From the UHGV virus genome UHGV-1482696: a stretch of DNA of 36,682 nt, one strand, 5' to 3'. This DNA is from a virus. Shown here in pieces: positions 1 through 36,682 of the stretch (positions within the stretch are counted from its first letter, which is position 1; the number at the start of each line of letters is the position of its first letter). Position numbers and translations under genes: made by a program. The notes below the pieces were generated by a model. The model searched no databases. It worked only from the letters and a program-made list of their open reading frames with translations, and was not told the origin of the DNA.

Positions 1-66
1 AAACAGATGAAGCTGAGCATTCTGGATAGATAATCCGAATTTTTGCATCAGATAGAAGGTGTAATA

Positions 67-71
67 GCTGC
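67..71. repeat. Left copy of 5-bp target-site duplication GCTGC
   Basis: GCTGC immediately precedes the phage left terminus TGTATTGATTCAC at 72; an identical pentamer follows the right terminus at 36630-36634. Confidence 0.85.
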
Positions 72-245
72 TGTATTGATTCACGAGAAGTACGAAAAAA
101 CCGGGAGGACATTGGATTATTCGGGATTTGACGGGATTAGATTTGGTGGGGCTTGCAAGCCTGTAGAGCAGATTTTAGTCGTTAAGCCTTGAAACGCGAA
201 AGATTGTTAAAAATGGCTTTTGTTTCATTAAAGATACGAAAAGCA
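72..245 (+). promoter_or_regulatory. attL: attL left transposon end with MuA binding sites L1-L3
   Basis: L1 at about 77-98 (TGATTCACGAGAAGTACGAAAA) matches the MuA end-site consensus; L2-like GAAACGCGAAAG near 190-202 and L3-like TGTTTCATTAAAGATACGAAAA near 220-243. Confidence 0.8.
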
Positions 246-410
246 ATTAATTCACACATCATTTCAATTTATGCTTCAAAAATGCTTCAAATCCGATAAC
301 AACCAGACCTTTGGCAAATGATGCATATCAAAAACAGCTTTTGCCGTTTCGGTATCTTACCCTCTTGGTTACTTGAGGGGAAGTGTGTGTTTTAGCTAGG
401 TTCCTGGTTG

Positions 411-926
411 TTATACGGCTTTTGTTACATCTTGTGGTTCTTGCGAAGGAGCTACAAGACCTTCCTGTTCATGAATACCATGCTCTGACAAAATCTCTTT
501 GCGCTCTTCTGCTGGTAAAGTTTCTAGCATTTGGGCGAGTTGTATGCACTCACGCGATACGCCGTGCAGAGATTGGATTTGAGTCTGATCAAAGATACTT
601 GGCATTAGTGCACTAAGTCCACCTTTGCTAAGTAGCTTTAGTGCCCTCTGGATTTCCTCTGGTTCTAACTCTGCAACCAAAGCCATTAACACAGAAGCTA
701 ACTTATAAGCTGACTTATCGTTATCTAATAACTGCGCCCCTCCTAATTCTGCCTGAGTAGCATCAGGTAATGAGCTAATATGGTATTCATAAGCAACACC
801 TTTTACTCCTTTGATCTGTCTCTTTTTCCATCCCTCATTAGTTGCTTTGCGGCTAATACTACTTGCTGAAGACGGAAGACCAGCAACCCCTTGTAGCTCT
901 TTAGCTGAAAACCATTCTTGTGTCAT
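411..926 (-). CDS. c: Immunity repressor c (D108-like N-terminal DNA-binding domain)
   Basis: Leftward ORF beside operator region; C-terminal half matches Mu repressor ([23 protein letters not shown]); N-terminal domain is homologous to the A N-terminus in this window; start placed at second ATG (926) with GAGG 6 nt upstream, alternative ATG at 956. Confidence 0.85.
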
Positions 927-956
927 CACAAACCTCGCTTTAAATACATCATGCAT

Positions 957-1126
957 TCAAAGAAATAAAAAACATATTCACTTTAAAATCATCGAGATAG
1001 ATGAATTTCAAATAAAATATTTGAATACACTATTGCATTGACAATGTATTCACACTAGCATTGCTGCATACCTTGTCAGCTACCTTGCGGCGTAGCTGAT
1101 GGCGTAGCTTGTGAGGATTGCATTTT
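957..1126. promoter_or_regulatory. Operator/early promoter region between c and ner (divergent Pc and Pe, transpositional enhancer)
   Basis: AT-rich intergenic region between divergent c and ner; repeated GTAGCT-type motifs at 1077-1083 (CAGCTAC), 1092-1098 and 1104-1109 just upstream of ner; position corresponds to Mu O1-O3/IAS. Confidence 0.65.
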
Positions 1127-1345
1127 ATGGCGATAAAGAAAAGTAAATGTGAAGACAAAAGCAGATACGACATTGTTGCTGATCTGCGCAAAAGAGGAAA
1201 AAGCCTAGCAGCTCTTGGTCGTGAGAACGGTCTCTCTATCTCTACGGTAAAAAATGCCTTGGATAAACCTTACCCTCGGGGGGAAAGAATCATTGCCGAT
1301 GCATTGGGAGTTGAGCCACGAGACATTTGGCCTTCGAGGTATTGA
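1127..1345 (+). CDS. ner: Ner-like DNA-binding negative regulator of early transcription
   Basis: 72-aa product [35 protein letters not shown]...IWPSRY with Ner family C-terminus (IWPSRY as in Mu Ner); GAGGA at 1113-1117 precedes ATG 1127 (track start 1118 is TTG). Confidence 0.85.
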
Positions 1346-1347
1346 AA

Positions 1348-3348
1348 ATGCAACCACAATGTAATGATTGGTTTTCTGCAAAGAAATTAGAAGGGCTGAT
1401 AGGTCTTCCAAAATCCTCTAGCGCGATCTCTCGTAAAGCAAGGTTAGAACAGTGGGTGTTTCGACAGATACACGGGGTAAGAGGAGTAGCCTATGAGTTT
1501 CATATCTCATCTTTACCAAAGGAAACACAAGCTGCGTTGTTACTTAGACAAGGAGAGATTGAAACAAGCCAGGGCCGTTTTGAAATCGCCCGCCCCACGC
1601 TGGAAGCCCACGATTACGATCGCGGGGCACTGTGGAGCAAATGGGATAAAGCCAGCGATTCCCAGCGCAGACTTGCTGAAAAATGGTTGCCTGCAGTTCA
1701 GGCCGCAGACGAAATGCTGAACCAGGGTATTTCAACAAAAACGGCTTTTGCGACCGTTGCAGGACATTACCAGGTCAGCGCATCCACTTTGCGAGACAAA
1801 TATTACCAGGTACAGAAGTTTGCGAAGCCTGACTGGGCGGCTGCGCTTGTTGATGGACGTGGTGCATCCCGTCGCAACGTTCACAAAAGTGAATTTGACG
1901 AGGATGCCTGGCAGTTTCTGATTGCAGATTATCTGCGACCGGAAAAACCCGCCTTTCGCAAATGTTATGAGCGTCTGGAACTGGCAGCACGTGAGCATGA
2001 CTGGAATATTCCCTCCCGTGCCACGGCCTTTCGCCGGATTCAGCAACTGGACGAGGCAATGGTTGTTGCCTGCCGTGAAGGTGAACATGCACTGATGCAT
2101 CTGATACCTGCACAGCAGCGAACTGTGGAACACCTGGACGCCATGCAGTGGATCAACGGCGACGGTTATCTGCATAACGTCTTTGTACGCTGGTTTAACG
2201 GTGATGTGATCCGCCCGAAAACATGGTTCTGGCAGGATGTGAAAACCCGAAAAATTCTGGGCTGGCGCTGCGATGTGAGCGAGAACATTGATTCAATTCG
2301 CCTCTCGTTCATGGATGTTGTGACTCGCTACGGTATCCCGGAGGATTTTCACATCACCATTGATAACACCCGTGGTGCAGCGAATAAATGGCTGACGGGA
2401 GGCGCGCCCAATCGCTACCGCTTTAAGGTGAAAGAAGACGATCCAAAGGGGGTGTTTTTACTGATGGGTGCGAAAATGCACTGGACAAGCGTTGTTGCCG
2501 GTAAAGGCTGGGGCCAGGCAAAACCTGTTGAACGTGCTTTCGGTGTTGGTGGGCTTGAGGAATACGTTGATAAGCATCCGGCACTGGCTGGCGCATATAC
2601 GGGGCCTAATCCGCAGGCAAAACCTGATAACTATGGCGACCGCGCTGTTGATGCAGAGCTGTTTCTGAAAACTCTTGCCGAAGGTGTGGCGATGTTCAAT
2701 GCCAGAACAGGCCGTGAAACAGAAATGTGCGGAGGCAAACTTTCGTTTGATGACGTTTTTGAGCGTGAATACGCCAGAACGATTGTGCGTAAGCCTACCG
2801 AAGAGCAAAAACGGATGCTGTTACTGCCTGCCGAGGCAGTGAACGTTTCACGTAAAGGCGAGTTCGCGCTTAAAGTTGGTGGCTCCCTTAAAGGTGCGAA
2901 AAACGTTTATTACAACATGGCGTTAATGAATGCCGGAGTGAAAAAAGTTGTGGTCAGATTTGATCCACAGCAGTTACACAGCACGGTTTATTGCTACACC
3001 CTGGACGGTCGGTTTATCTGTGAAGCGGAATGTCTGGCACCTGTTGCGTTTAATGATGCTGCGGCAGGCCGTGAATATCGCCGCCGCCAGAAACAACTGA
3101 AATCTGCGACGAAAGCAGCAATTAAGGCACAGAAACAAATGGATGCACTGGAAGTGGCAGAGCTGCTGCCGCAGATAGCCGCACCTGAAGCACCAGAATC
3201 ACGAATTGTCGGCATTTTCCGGCCTTCCGGTAATACGGAACGGGTGAAGAATCAGGAGCGTGATGATGAATACGAAACTGAGCGTGATGAATATCTGAAT
3301 CATTCGCTGGATATTCTGGAACAGAACAGACGTAAAAAAGCCATTTAA
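1348..3348 (+). CDS. A: DDE transposase MuA
   Basis: 666-aa product near-identical to Mu A from about residue 65 onward; N-terminal domain differs from Mu (D108-like); ATG 1348 preceded by GAGG; track start 1327 is TTG. Confidence 0.95.
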
Positions 3349-3386
3349 TTAACGTTTAAACAAAATTTAATTACGAGGTTATTCAG

Positions 3387-4325
3387 ATGAATATTTCCGA
3401 TATTCGCGCAGGACTGCGCACGCTTGTAGAAAATGAAGAAACCACTTTTAAACAAATTGCTCTTGAGAGCGGGCTTTCTACCGGAACTATCAGTAGTTTT
3501 ATCAATGATAAGTACAACGGGGATAACGAGCGTGTTTCACAAATTCTGCAACGCTGGCTGGAAAAATATCATGCAGTTGCAGAACTACCTGAACCGCCCC
3601 GCTTTGTGGAAACGCAGACGGTAAAACAAATCTGGACAAGTATGCGTTTTGCCAGCCTGACTGAAAGTATTGCTGTTGTATGTGGCAATCCTGGTGTGGG
3701 CAAAACCGAAGCGGCCCGTGAATATCGCCGCACCAATAACAATGTCTGGATGATCACCATTACGCCATCCTGTGCCAGCGTTCTGGAATGTCTTACTGAA
3801 CTGGCGTTTGAGCTGGGAATGAATGACGCACCCCGCCGTAAAGGGCCGCTCTCCCGCGCCCTGCGACGTCGCCTTGAAGGTACACAGGGGCTGGTTATCA
3901 TCGACGAAGCTGATCATCTTGGTGCCGAAGTTCTGGAAGAACTCCGCCTGTTACAGGAATCAACCCGCACTGGCCTTGTGCTGATGGGAAATCACCGGGT
4001 TTATTCAAATATGACGGGGGGTAACAGAACGGTTGAATTTGCCCGTCTGTTTTCCCGTATTGCAAAGCGCACTGCAATTAATAAAACCAAAAAAGCCGAT
4101 GTAAAAGCTATTGCGGATGCCTGGCAGATTAACGGCGAAAATGAACTGGAGTTATTACAGCAGATTGCGCAGAAACCAGGTGCGCTTCGCATTCTGAATC
4201 ATTCACTTCGCCTTGCCGCCATGACGGCTCACGGTAAAGGTGAGCGTGTTAACGAAGATTATCTGCGTCAGGCTTTCCGTGAATTAGACCTGGACGTTGA
4301 TATTTCAACGCTGCTGCGTAATTAA
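3387..4325 (+). CDS. B: MuB ATP-dependent target DNA activator
   Basis: 312 aa, MNISDIRAGLRTLVENEETTFKQIALESG..., Walker A GNPGVGKT, matches Mu B essentially throughout. Confidence 0.95.
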   Translation: MNISDIRAGLRTLVENEETTFKQIALESGLSTGTISSFINDKYNGDNERVSQILQRWLEKYHAVAELPEPPRFVETQTVKQIWTSMRFASLTESIAVVCGNPGVGKTEAAREYRRTNNNVWMITITPSCASVLECLTELAFELGMNDAPRRKGPLSRALRRRLEGTQGLVIIDEADHLGAEVLEELRLLQESTRTGLVLMGNHRVYSNMTGGNRTVEFARLFSRIAKRTAINKTKKADVKAIADAWQINGENELELLQQIAQKPGALRILNHSLRLAAMTAHGKGERVNEDYLRQAFRELDLDVDISTLLRN

Positions 4326-4340
4326 GAAGGAGAAGAAATT

Positions 4341-4568
4341 ATGATGGCCCGAAATATAAAAATGGCAACGGATGCGCAGAACTGGTTACAGGCGCGCGGG
4401 AGTCATGTAAATGAATCATATCTCGGCGTGGCGCGTCCGATTCTTGATATCACTTACCCACCGGTGGAACTGGTAAAAAACGCGGTCAGAATTATGGAGC
4501 ATAAGTCCGGGGTGGCCCGTTCTGTATGGACGGCCCGTCTTAATGGTTGTCAGATAATCTGGAGATAG
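4341..4568 (+). CDS. kil: Kil host-killing protein
   Basis: First ORF after B, small (75 aa), strong RBS AAGGAGAAG upstream; position and size match Mu kil. Confidence 0.7.
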
Positions 4569-4575
4569 TATTTAA

Positions 4576-4788
4576 ATGATTGTGATAAATATTCACGATA
4601 ATCTGGGAATCAGTAAGTTAATCAACCTTGATAATGTCAGTGTAATGGAAACGACTGTTGAGGGCGGTATTGCTTTTGAATTTATTGATGGTCGCCGGCT
4701 GGTCGTTCATGTCGGCAACCATCATCACGCAGAAGATGTGTTTTGTGAACTTAACAAAATCACAAATGCAACGCCCGTTAATCAATAA
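4576..4788 (+). CDS. Early hypothetical protein
   Basis: 70-aa ORF tightly packed after kil; synteny with Mu semi-essential early region. Confidence 0.5.
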   Translation: MIVINIHDNLGISKLINLDNVSVMETTVEGGIAFEFIDGRRLVVHVGNHHHAEDVFCELNKITNATPVNQ

Positions 4789-4801
4789 GCAGGTAATGAA
4801 A

Positions 4802-5071
4802 ATGGCAAAAGTAATCTTTGAATTTAACAATACAGGGAATATTGAGCTTCAGGAAAATGGAGGTTTTGCCGTAAATATGAATGTGCGACTGGAAGAATCC
4901 TCACCTGAGGACCAGACAGGACCACATGATGTAATGGCAGGCATCATCAAGAGCATGGCTCCTGAAATCATTAAAAAAGCGACCGAGGAGTTGTTGAAAT
5001 CAGCCAGGGAGCTTGGGCTGGAAGCCGAGGGGGAATTATTCAGCTATAACCCGAATGCAGCCAGACATTAA
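4802..5071 (+). CDS. Early hypothetical protein
   Basis: ORF in track 4658..5071 trimmed to ATG 4802 (MAKVIFEF...) which has RBS AGGT 7 nt upstream and does not overlap the preceding gene; alternative ATG 4796. Confidence 0.5.
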   Translation: MAKVIFEFNNTGNIELQENGGFAVNMNVRLEESSPEDQTGPHDVMAGIIKSMAPEIIKKATEELLKSARELGLEAEGELFSYNPNAARH

Positions 5072-6355: not shown

Positions 6356-6452
6356 TACCACCATTAATATTTAATTAATTCACATTCGTTTAATTATGGC
6401 GCGATGCGTCAGGGGACTACTCGCGCCTTAATCAGAACCGGAGAGAATGAAA

Positions 6453-7001
6453 ATGAAAGCATGTGCTTATTTTAAACTGAGTGACGAAGCCGCTAACGGT
6501 TATACGATTCGCTGGCTGAAAGATGTTTCTGTTAAGCGTGGTGAGATTATTGAGTCATTACAGCAATCAGTGAAAGCAATCGGTGTGTCTTTGTCTGGTG
6601 ACAAAGGGCCTGAGAGGGTTACGCATGTCTGGTTTAGCTACTTACCACCGGAAGGATGGGAGATTAAATCAAGGACACTTTTCATTGGTGATATTCAGTT
6701 ATGGGGCGCAATGCCGGATATGACAATACCGGCAGGTCGTGAGTACGGGAAGCTCATCCGGGACTGTGAAAATCAGCTCGAAAAACACCCGGATTTTCAG
6801 CGCTGGCTGTGCAATGAACTTAACGTGGCTACCGACGTTGACCTGTTTGACATCAGGTCCGTGTGGAAAATGCACCACAGCCGTGACGGATTCAGCATTT
6901 TGTTTGCAGTGTACCTTCTGGCTGGCGAAGTGAAGGGACCGGTTCCCGCCGAATGCCAGCGCATTAAACATTCTGAATTTGTGGCGCTGACGGAGGAATA
7001 A
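6453..7001 (+). CDS. Early hypothetical protein
   Basis: ORF 6447..7001 trimmed to ATG 6453 with GGAGAG 7 nt upstream. Confidence 0.55.
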   Translation: MKACAYFKLSDEAANGYTIRWLKDVSVKRGEIIESLQQSVKAIGVSLSGDKGPERVTHVWFSYLPPEGWEIKSRTLFIGDIQLWGAMPDMTIPAGREYGKLIRDCENQLEKHPDFQRWLCNELNVATDVDLFDIRSVWKMHHSRDGFSILFAVYLLAGEVKGPVPAECQRIKHSEFVALTEE

Positions 7002-7004
7002 CCG

Positions 7005-7556
7005 GTGATTGATGCAAAGGTTCTGAATGGTGTCAGCACATTATTACGGGCTTACGGGCGTCTGACCTGCGGGGTTCTGGCTGAAAAAATGAAGATGCTG
7101 CCCTCGTCAATGGTTTATTTCCTGCGTGATGCGGTTGATGCCGGTGTGCTCACCGAATGCAACGGATTTTATGACGTTCCGCGCCCGCGTCCGACGCTGC
7201 CTGTAAGACGAAACGCAACTGAGCAGCCTGCTGTTGATGATGCGGTGTGGTGCAACTGGCGTCGCTCATTACCCTGGGTGGAAGGTAATACCATCCCCGC
7301 GCTGGCAAAAGAGTTTGCAACGGGCGTGCTGACCTGTGAATCCGTTCACATCGTTGCAGAAGTGGATAACAGGATGTGCGAACAGGGAATGCCCCGTTTT
7401 GTGATGGCTTATATCGATATCCGGCTGGGGCGTTTTATTTGCAGCTCAAGCGCATGGAATATTACCGACCATGTACTGCGCTATCTCATTCTTGACTGTT
7501 CTGACACACCAGTTATGGCGCTGGAACAGGCGGATGCAAACCATAATTTTCTTTGA
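7005..7556 (+). CDS. Early hypothetical protein with winged-helix-like N-terminus
   Basis: GTG start 7005 with GGAGGA 7 nt upstream; 183 aa. Confidence 0.5.
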   Translation: MIDAKVLNGVSTLLRAYGRLTCGVLAEKMKMLPSSMVYFLRDAVDAGVLTECNGFYDVPRPRPTLPVRRNATEQPAVDDAVWCNWRRSLPWVEGNTIPALAKEFATGVLTCESVHIVAEVDNRMCEQGMPRFVMAYIDIRLGRFICSSSAWNITDHVLRYLILDCSDTPVMALEQADANHNFL

Positions 7557-8161: not shown

Positions 8162-8547
8162 CGGAAGATTTATTTGGTGATTTGCAGGATGACACTATCC
8201 TGGCACATCTTGACAATCCCGCAGAGGATACGTCACGCTTTCCGGCACTGCTGGCGGAGCTGAACGATTTACTACGCGGGGAATTGTCCCGGCTGGGTGT
8301 TGATCCTGCCCATTCACTGGAGATTGTTGTGGCTATCTGTAAGCATCTGGGCGGCGGTCAGGTCTACATTCCACGCGGTCAGGTTCTGGATTCGCTGATT
8401 CGGGATTTGCGTATCTGGAATGATTTCAACGGTCGCAATGTTCACGAACTGGCAATCCGTCATGGTGTGACATTTAACACAGTCTATAAAGCCATCCGAC
8501 GAATGCGGCGTATAAAGTATCGTCAGTATTCCCCCCCTTTGTTTTAA
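8158..8547 (+). CDS. mor: Mor middle-operon transcription activator
   Basis: 129 aa; paralogous to C (shared ...FNGRN...EL....G motif region); overlaps gemA stop (ATGA). Confidence 0.88.
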   Translation: MTEDLFGDLQDDTILAHLDNPAEDTSRFPALLAELNDLLRGELSRLGVDPAHSLEIVVAICKHLGGGQVYIPRGQVLDSLIRDLRIWNDFNGRNVHELAIRHGVTFNTVYKAIRRMRRIKYRQYSPPLF

Positions 8548-8552
8548 ACAGT

Positions 8553-8577
8553 AAAGCCGGTTAATCCGGCTTTTTTT
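8553..8577 (+). terminator. Intrinsic terminator at end of early operon
   Basis: AAAGCCGG-TTAAT-CCGGCTTTTTTT: GC stem 8555-8560/8566-8571 followed by T7 run. Confidence 0.8.
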
Positions 8578-8629
8578 ACGCCCTCAATATTCTGTTGTGA
8601 CGATAAAACGTTCATGACAGGAGGGCAAC
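8578..8629 (+). promoter_or_regulatory. Probable Mor-dependent middle promoter Pm
   Basis: Only intergenic space between mor and the next operon; by Mu synteny the Mor-activated promoter for the C-containing transcript lies directly after the early terminator. Confidence 0.5.
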
Positions 8630-9190
8630 ATGCCTGAGTTTTCCCCTGCATTCCTTCATTCGCTGAATTTCGTTATACGCCCTGATGTTGAAGGTGGCTA
8701 TGTTAATGATCCTGCCGACCGTGGCGGCGAAACGAAATACGGCATTTCTGACCGTCGCGACGGCGTTATTGATGGCAAAACCGATGTTAACGGTGACGGA
8801 AAACCTGATACCCGCATTAAGGATTTAACCCGCGAACAGGCAGCGCAGATCTACTGGCGTGATTACTGGCTGGCGGCAAAGTGTAACGAATGGCCTGATG
8901 GTGTTTCCTTATTCGTCTTTGATGCTGCCGTTCAGCACGGTGTTAAACGCGCGATTCAAATCCTCCAGGCGGCAGCAGGTGTTGATGATGATGGCATCGT
9001 TGGCAAAAACACCCGCGCAGCCGTTCTGCGTGCCGACACTGACTGGCTGCTGTTGCAGTGTTTCCTGCGTCGTTCCCGCTATTACGCAGGGATTATCAAA
9101 TCCAGTGCCTCGCAGGGGAAATATCTGAACGGCTGGTTTAACCGTCTGGATCTGCTCGCCAGCGCCTGCCGGGAGGTTCTGCATGGGTAA
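8630..9190 (+). CDS. GH108-family muramidase-like protein with C-terminal peptidoglycan-binding domain
   Basis: N-terminal motif VEGGYVNDPADRGGETKYGIS typical of glycoside hydrolase family 108 (catalytic Glu in EGGY); C-terminal region resembles PG_binding_3; RBS GGAGGG upstream. Confidence 0.7.
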   Translation: MPEFSPAFLHSLNFVIRPDVEGGYVNDPADRGGETKYGISDRRDGVIDGKTDVNGDGKPDTRIKDLTREQAAQIYWRDYWLAAKCNEWPDGVSLFVFDAAVQHGVKRAIQILQAAAGVDDDGIVGKNTRAAVLRADTDWLLLQCFLRRSRYYAGIIKSSASQGKYLNGWFNRLDLLASACREVLHG

Positions 9191-9401
9191 AGGGTGGGAT
9201 GCGTCCTTTCAGTTCGGCAGGCGCGAACGTTTACGACAGGAGGTATTACATCGGGAGGCCGGAGGCCCGCCACCAAAGCCAATGGATTACACAGGGCACG
9301 ATGGCACCCACGGAAGTTATTACATGAAAGGCTGGCAGTCAGTTGATATGCCGGAAATTCTTCATCATTGCCTGCTTTACAGGGAGAAACATTATGTCTG
9401 A
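9183..9401 (+). CDS. Middle-operon hypothetical protein
   Basis: 72-aa ORF exactly filling the gap, start overlapping upstream stop (ATGGGTAA) and stop overlapping downstream start (ATGTCTGA). Confidence 0.5.
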   Translation: MGKGWDASFQFGRRERLRQEVLHREAGGPPPKPMDYTGHDGTHGSYYMKGWQSVDMPEILHHCLLYREKHYV

Positions 9402-9756
9402 GCGTTCTGCTCGTCAGTGGCCTGATTTTTTATCGGTGGTGTTACTGGCGCTGTTATTGTGGATAAGTCTGTTTTGTGGCTGGCGCGCGCTGATGTTTTG
9501 CTGTGCCTCGGTTTTCAGTGTTGCTTTATGTGTTGCCGCTGATTGTCTGGATGCGCTGATAATGAGCTGCCGGGTGCCTGAACATTTTGCCCGGTTCGTC
9601 TGGCCTCTGACCTGGCTGGGGAGTCTGTCCGGGCTGGGATTAGCCGTGATGGCAACGTCTCAACTGAAAACGGGTCCTGAGCATGTCATCTGGGCGCTGG
9701 CCGGATTGCTGACGTTCTGGCTCTCCTTTCGTTTTCGCGCTCGTCTGTTCGGGTAA
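9394..9756 (+). CDS. Middle-operon integral membrane protein
   Basis: ORF 9343..9756 trimmed to ATG 9394 (AGGGAG upstream); 120 aa with three to four hydrophobic helices (VVLLALLLWISLFCGW, VFSVALCVAADCL, LTWLGSLSGLGLAVMA, VIWALAGLLTFWL). Confidence 0.6.
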   Translation: MSERSARQWPDFLSVVLLALLLWISLFCGWRALMFCCASVFSVALCVAADCLDALIMSCRVPEHFARFVWPLTWLGSLSGLGLAVMATSQLKTGPEHVIWALAGLLTFWLSFRFRARLFG

Positions 9757-31375: not shown

Positions 31376-32883
31376 TGTTTTATATTGATAACGACAGCGG
31401 CGTAACCGTCATGCCGCCCGTATCCGCCCAGCGTAGTGCTATCGTTCGCTGGTTTTCAGAAGGTGACGGGAATAATGTTATCACATGGCCCGGCATGGAC
31501 TGGTTTAATATTGTGCAGGCGGAGTTATTAAACACGCTGGAAGAAGCCGGTATTCAACCGGATAAAACAAAATTAAACCAGCTTGCACTGTCCATTAAAG
31601 CCATTATGAGCAATAACGCGCTGCTGATAAAAAATAACCTCAGCGAAATTAAAACTGCCGGGGCATCAGCACAGCGTACAGCACGTGAAAATCTGGATAT
31701 CTATGATGCCAGCCTGAACAAAAAAGGACTCGTTCAGCTAACCAGTGCCACTGACAGCCCCAGTGAAACGCTGGCAGCCACCGCAAAAGCGGTGAAAATT
31801 GCGATGGATAATGCCAGTGCCCGTCTGGCAAAAGACCGGAACGGAGCAGATATTCCCAATAAGCCGCTGTTTATCCAAAACCTCGGTTTACAGGAAACGG
31901 TAAACAAGGCTGGTAACGCCGTCCAAAAGACAGGCGATATCTTGTCCGGTGGGCTTACTTTTGAAAACGACTCAATCCTTGCCTGGATTCGGAATACTGA
32001 CTGGGCAAAGATTGGTTTTAAAAATGATGCCGACAGCGATACTGATTCATACATGTGGTTTGAAACAGGCGACAACGGCAATGAATATTTCAAATGGAGA
32101 AGCCGCCAGAGCACCACAACAAAAGACCTGATGAATCTTAAATGGGATGCTTTGTATGTTCTTGTTAAAGCTCTTTTCAGCAGTGAAGTAAAAATATCGA
32201 CAGTCAATGCACTGAGGATATTTAATTCATCTTTTGGTGCTATTTTTCGCCGTTCTGAAGAATGTCTTCATATCATCCCTACCCGAGAAAATGAGGGGGA
32301 AAATGGCGATATAGGGCCACTACGCCCCTTTACGCTTAATCTCAGAACTGGTCGCATAACTATGGGGCATGGTCTGGATGTTACAGGAGATATATTTGCA
32401 AACCGTTTTTTAATTAACAGCAGTACAGGCATGTGGATTCATATGCGTGACCAGAACGTTATTATGGGACGTAATGCGGTATCCACTGATGGTGCTCAGG
32501 CTTTGCTCCGTCAGGACCATGCCGACCGCAAATTTATGATTGGCGGTCTGGGAAATAAGCAATTTGGCATCTACATGATTAATAATTCAAGGACAGCCAA
32601 TGGCACCGATGGTCAGGCGTACATGGATAATAACGGGAACTGGCTTTGCGGCTCGCAAGTTATTCCCGGCAACTATGGCAATTTTGACTCACGCTATGTG
32701 AGAGATGTCCGACTTGGCACACGTGTTGTTCAATTGATGGCGCGTGGAGGACGTTATGAAATAGCCGGACACGCACTTACTGGATTAAGAATTATTGGCG
32801 AAGTTGATGGCGATGATGAAGCTATTTTCAGGCCGATACAAAAATACATCAATGGCATATGGTATAACGTCGCACAGGTGTAA
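31375..32883 (+). CDS. S: Tail fibre protein S (constant part Sc fused to variable part Sv, G(+) orientation)
   Basis: 502 aa; reading frame passes through gixL at 31871-31904 (..ADIPNKPLFIQNLGLQETVNK..). Confidence 0.9.
   Translation: MFYIDNDSGVTVMPPVSAQRSAIVRWFSEGDGNNVITWPGMDWFNIVQAELLNTLEEAGIQPDKTKLNQLALSIKAIMSNNALLIKNNLSEIKTAGASAQRTARENLDIYDASLNKKGLVQLTSATDSPSETLAATAKAVKIAMDNASARLAKDRNGADIPNKPLFIQNLGLQETVNKAGNAVQKTGDILSGGLTFENDSILAWIRNTDWAKIGFKNDADSDTDSYMWFETGDNGNEYFKWRSRQSTTTKDLMNLKWDALYVLVKALFSSEVKISTVNALRIFNSSFGAIFRRSEECLHIIPTRENEGENGDIGPLRPFTLNLRTGRITMGHGLDVTGDIFANRFLINSSTGMWIHMRDQNVIMGRNAVSTDGAQALLRQDHADRKFMIGGLGNKQFGIYMINNSRTANGTDGQAYMDNNGNWLCGSQVIPGNYGNFDSRYVRDVRLGTRVVQLMARGGRYEIAGHALTGLRIIGEVDGDDEAIFRPIQKYINGIWYNVAQV
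31871..31904. repeat. gixL recombination site (left inverted repeat of G segment)
   Basis: TTATCCAAAACCTCGGTTTACAGGAAACGGTAAA; inverted copy at 34916-34949 with one mismatch. Confidence 0.9.
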
Positions 32884-32886
32884 ATC

Positions 32887-33414
32887 ATGCAGCACTTAAA
32901 AAATATCAGGTCAGGAAACCCAAAGACAAAAGAGCAATACCAATTGACAAAGAATTTTGACGTAATCTGGTTGTGGTCAGAAGACGAAAAAAACTGGTAC
33001 GAGGAATTAAAAAACTTTCAGCCAGACACAATAAAGATTGTTTACGATGCAAATAATATTATTGTCGCCATCACTAAAGATGCCTCCACGCTTAACCCTG
33101 AAGGTTTTAGCGTCGTTGAGGTCCCCGATATAACAGCCAACCGCCGCGCTGATGATTCAGGAAAGTGGATGTTTAAGGATGGAGCTGTAGTTAAACGGAT
33201 TTATACGGCAGACGAACAGCAACAACAGGCCGAATCACAAAAGGCCGCGTTACTTTCCGAAGCAGAAAGTGTTATTCAGCCACTGGAACGCGCTGTCAGG
33301 CTGAATATGGCAACAGACGAGGAACGCACACGACTGGAAGCATGGGAACGCTACAGTGTTCTGGTCAGCCGTGTGGATACGGCAAATCCTGAATGGCCAC
33401 AAAAGCCTGAATAA
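32887..33414 (+). CDS. U: Tail fibre assembly chaperone U
   Basis: 175 aa; paralogous to the minus-strand U' ORF (shared [42 protein letters not shown]). Confidence 0.9.
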
Positions 33415-36534: not shown

Positions 36535-36560
36535 AGCAGTAATTAATACTGCTGTTTCAT
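36535..36560 (+). terminator. Hairpin terminator after mom
   Basis: AGCAGTA-ATTAA-TACTGCT stem followed by GTTTCATTT. Confidence 0.55.
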
Positions 36561-36629
36561 TTGAAGCGCGAAAGCTAAAGTTTTCGCATTTATCGTGAAA
36601 CGCTTTCGCGTTTTTCGTGCGCCGCTTCA
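36555..36629 (+). promoter_or_regulatory. attR: attR right transposon end with MuA binding sites R1-R3
   Basis: Three tandem CGAAA-containing MuA-type sites (GAAGCGCGAAAGC.., TTTTCGCATTTATCGTGAAACGC, TTTCGCGTTTTTCGTGCGCCGCTTCA) ending in terminal CA at 36629. Confidence 0.8.
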
Positions 36630-36634
36630 GCTGC
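36630..36634. repeat. Right copy of 5-bp target-site duplication GCTGC
   Basis: Identical to 67-71; immediately follows terminal CA of the phage right end. Confidence 0.85.
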
Positions 36635-36682
36635 TGATGCTCGCCATATAGAAATATTTCGAGAAAATGAGGATTAACAGAA

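Follow-up and report, generated by a model that had tools for sequence, protein, structure and literature searches.

Introduction

Phage Mu is the textbook case of immunity coupled to transposition via a DNA-binding domain that repressor and transposase have in common, and the sharing of this domain in both Mu and D108 has long been established, reportedly by Harshey et al. in 1985 and by Mizuuchi, Weisberg and Mizuuchi in 1986. The repressor/transposase coupling has so far been studied with only two natural specificities, those of Mu and D108. Here the early control region of UHGV virus genome UHGV-1482696 was compared with these systems; the whole stretch of DNA analysed (36,682 nucleotides, hereafter the window) harbours a repressor gene, c, divergent from ner, the transposase gene A and B. 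We assign a probability of roughly 80% to the reading that a complete Mu-like prophage has its early control (immunity) module here and that this module represents a third immunity class, separate from those of Mu and D108. Judged from sequence, the module stands at about the same distance from either classical type.

Results

A divergent block within a complete Mu-like prophage

The window as a whole represents a complete integrated Mu-like prophage (72-36629; 36,558 bp). The Mu left-end sequence TGTATTGATTCAC begins at 72 and the right end stops at 36629, with both prophage ends flanked by a perfect 5-bp target duplication, GCTGC (67-71 and 36630-36634). Six matches to the transposase end-site consensus YMYNWRAARYRCGAAAR, each with 0-1 mismatch, were found in the classical positions: L1 (82-98), L2 (186-202) and L3 (226-242) in the left prophage end (attL; 72-242, plus strand), and the mirror sites R3, R2 and R1 (36558-36619) in the right end. 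The insertion is in E. coli fsr, which encodes the fosmidomycin MFS transporter (flanks 1-71 and 36630-36682), and the empty site rebuilt from the flanks was 100% identical to fsr of thousands of E. coli genomes. According to the open reading frame (ORF) list and Pfam, c is divergent from ner-A-B, with a DDE transposase followed by a MuB ATPase.

Sliding identity in a five-way MAFFT alignment delimited a divergent immunity block at about 510-1550. Within it the window was unalignable with, or just 40-65% identical to, Mu, D108 and SfMu; most 50-bp bins were 92-100% identical to Escherichia phage PhiR68_1 (PV340575.1), the only phage that covered the block in megablast. The left junction falls within the 3′ part of c, the final 100 nucleotides of which (411-510) are about 82-88% Mu-like DNA; the right junction lies in the linker after residue 65-68 of A, DNA identity to Mu, D108 and SfMu being back at 0.84-0.96 from about 1553. 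Outside the block, most 500-bp bins were 95-100% identical to Mu and D108. The initial annotation, which was made from the letters of the window, had proposed a heteroimmune mosaic of D108-like type; the mosaic structure, namely a divergent block of c, operator, ner and A N-terminus set in a Mu/D108 backbone, was borne out, and the D108 type was not.

Repressor, Ner and transposase compared with both classical types

The repressor c (411-926, minus strand; 171 residues) was recognized from the ORF list and from Pfam, PHROG and PDB matches. It carries PF02316 (HTH_Tnp_Mu_1; 4.8e-23) and falls into PHROG 7148 (transcriptional repressor; 1.7e-48), while its N-terminus matches the MuA I-alpha domain structure (PDB 1TNS; 6.6e-7) and the Mu repressor DNA-binding domain structures (1G4D/1QPM; 1.1e-6). 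The ORF reaches an upstream ATG at 956 (411-956, minus strand), and the second Met, at 926, is the likely start of c: GAGG is found 6 nucleotides upstream of it, and both RefSeq and the PhiR68_1 annotation use the same start.

Three parts were distinguished in c on the minus strand: the DNA-binding domain (residues 1-62; nucleotides 741-926), an oligomerisation-like middle (residues 81-135) and a Mu-like C-terminal tail (residues 136-171; nucleotides 411-518). By BLASTP the whole protein is 45% identical (127 bits) to full-length Mu c and 39% (109 bits) to D108 c. The DNA-binding domain is 53-56% identical to that of D108 versus 33-37% to that of Mu, the middle 24% versus 49%, and the tail 47% versus 72%, respectively. 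On these identities c is itself a mosaic, with its DNA-binding domain nearer D108 and its middle and tail nearer Mu. For Mu c, the RefSeq coding sequence (CDS) gives 174 residues (NC_000929.1, 339-863) and the ORF 196 residues from a TTG at 929, which is the length of Mu-type repressor clusters such as P0008; identities against the RefSeq CDS understate the N-terminal comparison.

Repressors with exchanged tails were also observed. Some Mu-type repressors (196 residues, with the Mu DNA-binding domain) end in the tail of the third class, as in P0007 and, in a variant form, P0005. The P0007 tail is an exact match to the representative of the third-class cluster and one residue off the tail of the window c, which fits an exchange between immunity classes by recombination within the 3′ end of c (411-470 in the window). 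That one c residue near the C-terminus is private to the window (a K-to-T change, DVTKAV versus DVKKAV in the cluster representative).

The early negative regulator gene ner (1127-1345, plus strand) encodes 72 residues (HTH_35; 2.1e-25), with an identity of 98.6% to Ner of PhiR68_1, 64% to that of D108 and 47% to that of Mu. Transposase A (1348-3348, plus strand; 666 residues) carries PF02316 (2.4e-43), HTH_Tnp_Mu_2, DDE_2 and Mu-transpos_C. Its domain I-alpha (residues 1-68; 1348-1551, plus strand) is, by BLASTP and PF02316, a paralogue of the c DNA-binding domain, and the remainder (1552-3348, plus strand), which comprises I-beta/gamma, the DDE core and the C-terminal domain as assigned by Pfam, is of backbone type. 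Residues 1-75 are 52% identical to D108, 48% to Mu and 98.7% to PhiR68_1, and residues 76-666 are 99.0% identical to D108 and 98.6% to Mu (98.3-99.0% across Mu, D108, SfMu and PhiR68_1), in keeping with the earlier remark that the domain is not that of Mu and that A is Mu-like from about residue 65. B (MuB ATPase; 3387-4325), which follows A, shows 99-100% DNA identity to Mu and D108. No NCBIfam model matched c or A, and Ner gave only a below-cutoff NCBIfam match to SfsB.

For a phage of the Mu class, near-identical c, Ner and A I-alpha along with the operator repeats would be expected, yet the window reaches 45% in c, 47% in Ner and 48% in the A N-terminus. Likewise, SfMu, an accepted member of the D108 class, is 89% identical to D108 in c and 98% in Ner (PMC4406740), versus 39 and 64% for the window. 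The initial annotation had suggested alignment to Mu and D108 as a check of its D108-type label, and the outcome was split: the c DNA-binding domain (53% versus 37%), Ner (64% versus 47%) and the A N-terminus (52% versus 48%) are nearer D108 than Mu, as is the control-region DNA (58-64% identical to D108, 36-38% to Mu), but the whole of c is nearer Mu. A short wing loop in c and A, without the one-residue insertion of Mu, points to D108 as well. That the module is of the D108 immunity type, which would protect a lysogen from D108 and SfMu and leave it sensitive to Mu, is nevertheless very unlikely, as the identities of c, Ner and A N-terminus fall far under the level found within that class (89-98% between D108 and SfMu in c and Ner; 95-96% in the DNA-binding domains); the operator sites and a strain carrying both types, both described below, argue in the same direction.

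An ancient, selected similarity between the c and A DNA-binding domains

The two N-terminal peptides quoted in the initial annotation were found in the translations exactly as written, and the homology it had drawn from them held: c and A were identical at 39 of 60 positions and similar at 47 of 60 in an ungapped BLASTP alignment (E = 5e-23, single comparison), and both carry PF02316. From these matches the common domain is identified as the winged-helix Mu DNA-binding domain (PF02316; PDB 1TNS, 1G4D). In a DNA-binding-domain identity matrix, c and A of the same phage were 68% identical in the window, 54% in D108 and 43% in Mu; the A domain of the window was 49% identical to that of D108 and 42% to that of Mu, and the D108 and SfMu domains were 95-96% identical to each other.

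Between the c and A domains of the window, identity at codon positions 1, 2 and 3 was 0.70, 0.75 and 0.30, respectively, and synonymous sites are saturated. The identity thus sits at the first and second positions, which indicates an old c/A paralogy kept by purifying selection at the protein level, as would be expected if the same DNA has to be recognised by both proteins. A recent gene conversion was considered as the cause of the 68% identity between c and A and ruled out, since third positions are just 30% identical. In a tree of ten DNA-binding domains, Mu c and Mu A formed a clade with 99% bootstrap support, and window c and window A grouped with 34%; given the latter value, no concerted evolution is claimed for the third class.

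The codon pattern also bears on whether the module is simply decaying in a cryptic prophage, with a c/A similarity that has no present function. Nothing specific suggests such decay apart from the single private substitution in c (DVTKAV), whereas c, ner, A and B are all intact, the prophage is complete with its six end sites and perfect 5-bp target duplication, the same module is found in the isolated phage PhiR68_1 (E. coli C is given as host in its record), and the similarity lies at the codon positions expected under purifying selection. Such decay is very unlikely.

Candidate operators, early promoter and Ner box

A 10-bp half-site resembling TGTATTCAAA was found at 939-948 (minus), 952-961 (plus), 1020-1029 (minus) and 1045-1054 (plus). 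Six matches to TGTATTCAAA with at most one mismatch are present in the whole 36.7-kb window, four of them within 939-1054. These four half-sites make up two inverted pairs that are about 87 bp apart in the c-ner intergenic region. The first pair, TTTAAATACA-tca-TGCATTCAAA (939-961), is a candidate operator/enhancer element that would be O1-like; the second, TTTGAATACA-N15-TGTATTCACA (1020-1054), is a candidate O2-like element and brackets the −35 of the putative early promoter. Class members with repressors at only 83-86% identity keep most of both elements, apart from single-base variants, and the A/T-rich spacer between the two elements varies. The putative early promoter (−35 TTGCAT at 1033-1038 and −10 TAGCAT at 1056-1061, 17-bp spacing) was placed by eye as a positional match to the D108 sequence TTGATT-17-TACATT. 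By analogy with the described phages, we infer that the true operators are among these repeats, and the promoter positions are likewise putative.

The half-sites are specific to the class. Motif TGTATTCAAA occurs in four copies each in the window and PhiR68_1 and in none in Mu, D108 or SfMu. The motif CTTTTYAGTAA, the Mu-type operator consensus, has six copies in Mu and none in D108, SfMu, the window or PhiR68_1. The D108-type motif TGAAATCA, which was defined from the D108 and SfMu sequences in which it was counted and not from footprints, has six copies in D108, five in SfMu, none in Mu and one each in the window and PhiR68_1, the single match in the window being weak. Near-absence of this motif (one copy versus five to six) is a further point against a D108-type module.

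A candidate Ner operator was located at 1076-1099, where TCAGCTAC-N8-GTAGCTGA forms a perfect 8-bp inverted repeat with an 8-bp spacer; it occurs once in the window (0.08 expected by chance), and a third copy of GTAGCT lies beside it at 1104-1109. Its half-sites are kept across the third class, one of them with G for the final A, and the spacer varies. The core AGCTAC-N8-GTAGCT, including the spacer length, is common to the window, D108 and SfMu, and is not shared by Mu. In D108 and SfMu the inverted repeat is CCGTGAGCTAC-N8-GTAGCTCACGG, the D108 Ner operator; its outer bases differ from those of the window repeat, and the extended D108 Ner box GTGAGCTAC-N8-GTAGCTCAC was not found in the window. 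The label of D108-type immunity given in the initial annotation is not supported by the repeated operator motif or by the proteins (c 39% and Ner 64%, versus 89-98% within the class); in the Ner operator, the core is held in common and the extended arms are absent.

The shared core also raises the question of whether the divergent sequence still has a partly cross-reactive function, with Ner, or even c, reading D108 sites and conferring partial or one-way immunity. Besides the identical core and spacer length in D108, SfMu and the window, the 64% identity between the two Ner proteins speaks for such cross-reaction, and so does one conserved AAAATCA between the two candidate elements, which resembles a D108 half-site. 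On both arms, however, the Ner core is flanked by different bases (TTGTC versus CCGTG), the repeated half-sites of the repressor type in one class are not found in another, and a strain lysogenic for all three types exists (see below). Cross-reactive function to an extent that would confer immunity is therefore rated as unlikely.

Distribution of the module and co-resident prophages

Of 5,426 complete E. coli genomes, 89 have the A backbone, 45 the D108-type block, 27 the Mu-type block and 15 the third-type block; the third class thus accounts for about one in six of the Mu-backbone prophages in this set. In a protein-level search of 50,697 phage records, only PhiR68_1 has the repressor of the window, and all others are at or below 46% identity. 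The window c is 99% identical to cluster P0001; at 90% identity the repressor cluster holds 109 member sequences from 844 public contigs, with E. coli and Salmonella entries, and variant repressors at 86 and 83% identity are also present in the protein collection. The large protein search returned no D108-class repressors (its word index limits sensitivity) and is unfit for counting immunity classes. In E. coli genomes and in the protein collection, the module repressor is named only ‘DNA-binding protein'. A literature search found no paper that analyses this third Mu immunity type or the immunity of PhiR68_1, the name PhiR68 appearing there only for a different phage, PhiR68.2, in a preprint on defence systems. 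The third class is thus represented in public data and by one sequenced phage, and is uncharacterised as far as we could find.

The chromosome of E. coli 22KM0354 (NZ_CP151071.1) carries three full-length Mu-like prophages of 36,610, 36,740 and 36,688 bp, which are of the third, Mu and D108 immunity type, respectively. In each of them, c, ner, A and B are intact; the backbones show 98-99.7% identity, with many proteins under the same accession, and positions 440-1480 are unalignable between the three. In strain MIN10, a third-type and a Mu-type prophage are found together. Such co-residence of three types is what heteroimmune phages would allow, and it is circumstantial evidence that the mosaic region is probably heteroimmune. 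The full-length D108-type and third-type prophages side by side in 22KM0354 also argue against the module being of D108 type, and the triple lysogen argues against partial cross-immunity.

In 22KM0354, the 5-bp duplications match at the third-type copy (ACCAC) and at the Mu-type copy (CTCGC). The two flanks of the D108-type copy differ (ACCAG versus GCGGC), suggesting that this copy was rearranged later. The Mu-type copy has an internal stop in the CDS of a DNA-circularization (gene N-like) protein. Five E. coli genomes harbour a D108-like immunity block at 86.8% DNA identity, with a repressor annotated as ‘DNA-binding protein' and not as MerR family; this block may be a D108 sub-variant or a further class.

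Other features of the prophage

Outside the immunity module, several patches differ from the reference phages. Just after mor, positions 8630-9190 (plus strand) encode a 186-residue protein with Glyco_hydro_108 and PG_binding_3 domains (PHROG 315, endolysin), and this DNA matched none of Mu, D108 and PhiR68_1; the gene seems to be a second one of muramidase-like type beside the lys region, which is 99% identical to Mu. A 184-residue ORF at 6447-7001 (plus strand; PHROG 2260, no Pfam match) lies directly upstream of a Gp11_C-domain protein (7005-7556), in a segment that likewise had no DNA match to these three phages. The gp6/gp7 region is a mosaic patch (4500-5000) with a 70-residue ORF at 4576-4788 (PHROG 3375) that all three references match in part. 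In another patch, at 32000-33000, the variable part of the tail-fibre gene S is PhiR68_1-like (96-98%), with Mu at only 54-75%. An Rfam scan of 1-4000 with E up to 0.1 gave no match.

Discussion

A model of the module can be drawn on established Mu and D108 biology. The N-terminal winged-helix domain of c would bind the repeated sites, as two inverted pairs, in the roughly 200-bp c-ner intergenic region, and bound c would shut off rightward early transcription of ner, A and B at its promoter. Once made, Ner would bind the inverted repeat at 1076-1099 upstream of its own gene and lower both early and repressor transcription. For A, this operator DNA would serve as a transpositional enhancer, bound through domain I-alpha, and c would thereby block both the synthesis and the action of A. 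Since repressor, operator/enhancer and I-alpha must match, they would be inherited or exchanged as one block (about 510-1550), with the Mu-like C-terminal tail of c outside this specificity block. Lysogens of the prophage would accordingly not be expected to be immune to Mu or D108.

Several results weigh against a third class of this kind. The TGTATTCAAA half-site was derived from the same sequence in which it was counted, and unbiased 8-mer enrichment in the control region of the window was not significant, as 25% of shuffles equalled it; this test is weak even for the Mu control region (9% of shuffles) and is thus without power. A promoter scan of 850-1200 missed the proposed early promoter, which scores 7 of 12 by manual count against a threshold of 9, and returned a single minus-strand site (1044-1016), equal to chance expectation. 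Over the whole window, an IHF scan (WATCAANNNNTTR, one mismatch) gave 19 matches versus 28 expected; the lone match in the control region (1011-1023) was rejected as evidence because the scan was not above chance. As the core of its box is identical to that of D108, Ner could cross-react with D108. Co-residence is weakened as proof of heteroimmunity by E. coli cS51a (NZ_CM176585.1), one chromosome of which has two third-type block matches and two A-backbone matches and which could be a double lysogen of one immunity type or the result of a duplication, and laboratory strains also carry two Mu-type copies. Finally, no immunity, binding or transcription experiment on the module was found in the searchable literature.

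A third immunity class remains the preferred reading. The evidence moderately favours a broader proposition, that among E. coli Mu-like phages with a near-identical backbone there are three or more sets of repressor, operator/enhancer and I-alpha, each co-evolved and heteroimmune to the others, of which the third would have palindromic TGTATTCAAA-type sites and the tightest c/A match (68%) and would be independent in repression and in enhancer-dependent transposition, while its Ner may cross-talk with D108. If true, a third natural specificity on the same backbone would add one more combination of repressor, operator/enhancer and transposase domain that fit together, would help dissect the co-evolution of winged-helix recognition in two paralogues that share one constraint, and could serve in building independent Mu-based transposition or repression tools. 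‘D108-like' is, moreover, not a label that can safely be given to every non-Mu immunity region.

Comparison with Mu, D108, SfMu and PhiR68_1

With Mu, the prophage shares gene order, orientation and Pfam domains, a winged-helix domain common to c and the A N-terminus, the middle and tail of c (49 and 72%) and a backbone that is 95-100% identical from A residue 68 on. It differs from Mu in that its DNA-binding domains are only 33-42% identical to the Mu counterparts, in the N-terminus and wing loop of c, which in Mu are longer by 25 residues and one residue, respectively, in Ner (47%), and in having neither the CTTTTYAGTAA operator motif nor a Mu-type Ner site.

With D108 and SfMu, it shares a short c N-terminus, the short wing loop in c and A, a Ner at 64%, the Ner operator core AGCTAC-N8-GTAGCT and a right junction at the same place in A; it differs from D108 in c (39% overall and 24% in the middle), in A I-alpha (49-52%), in its repeated half-site (TGTATTCAAA versus TGAAATCA) and in the Ner-box flanks.

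From PhiR68_1, it differs in the early-region accessory genes (at about 4500-5000, 6450-7000 and 8500-9500) and in a D108-specific gene at the PhiR68_1 right end, whereas the immunity module itself is closely alike in the two, with c at 95.3%, Ner at 98.6% and the A N-terminus at 98.7% identity and with the same half-sites and Ner box.

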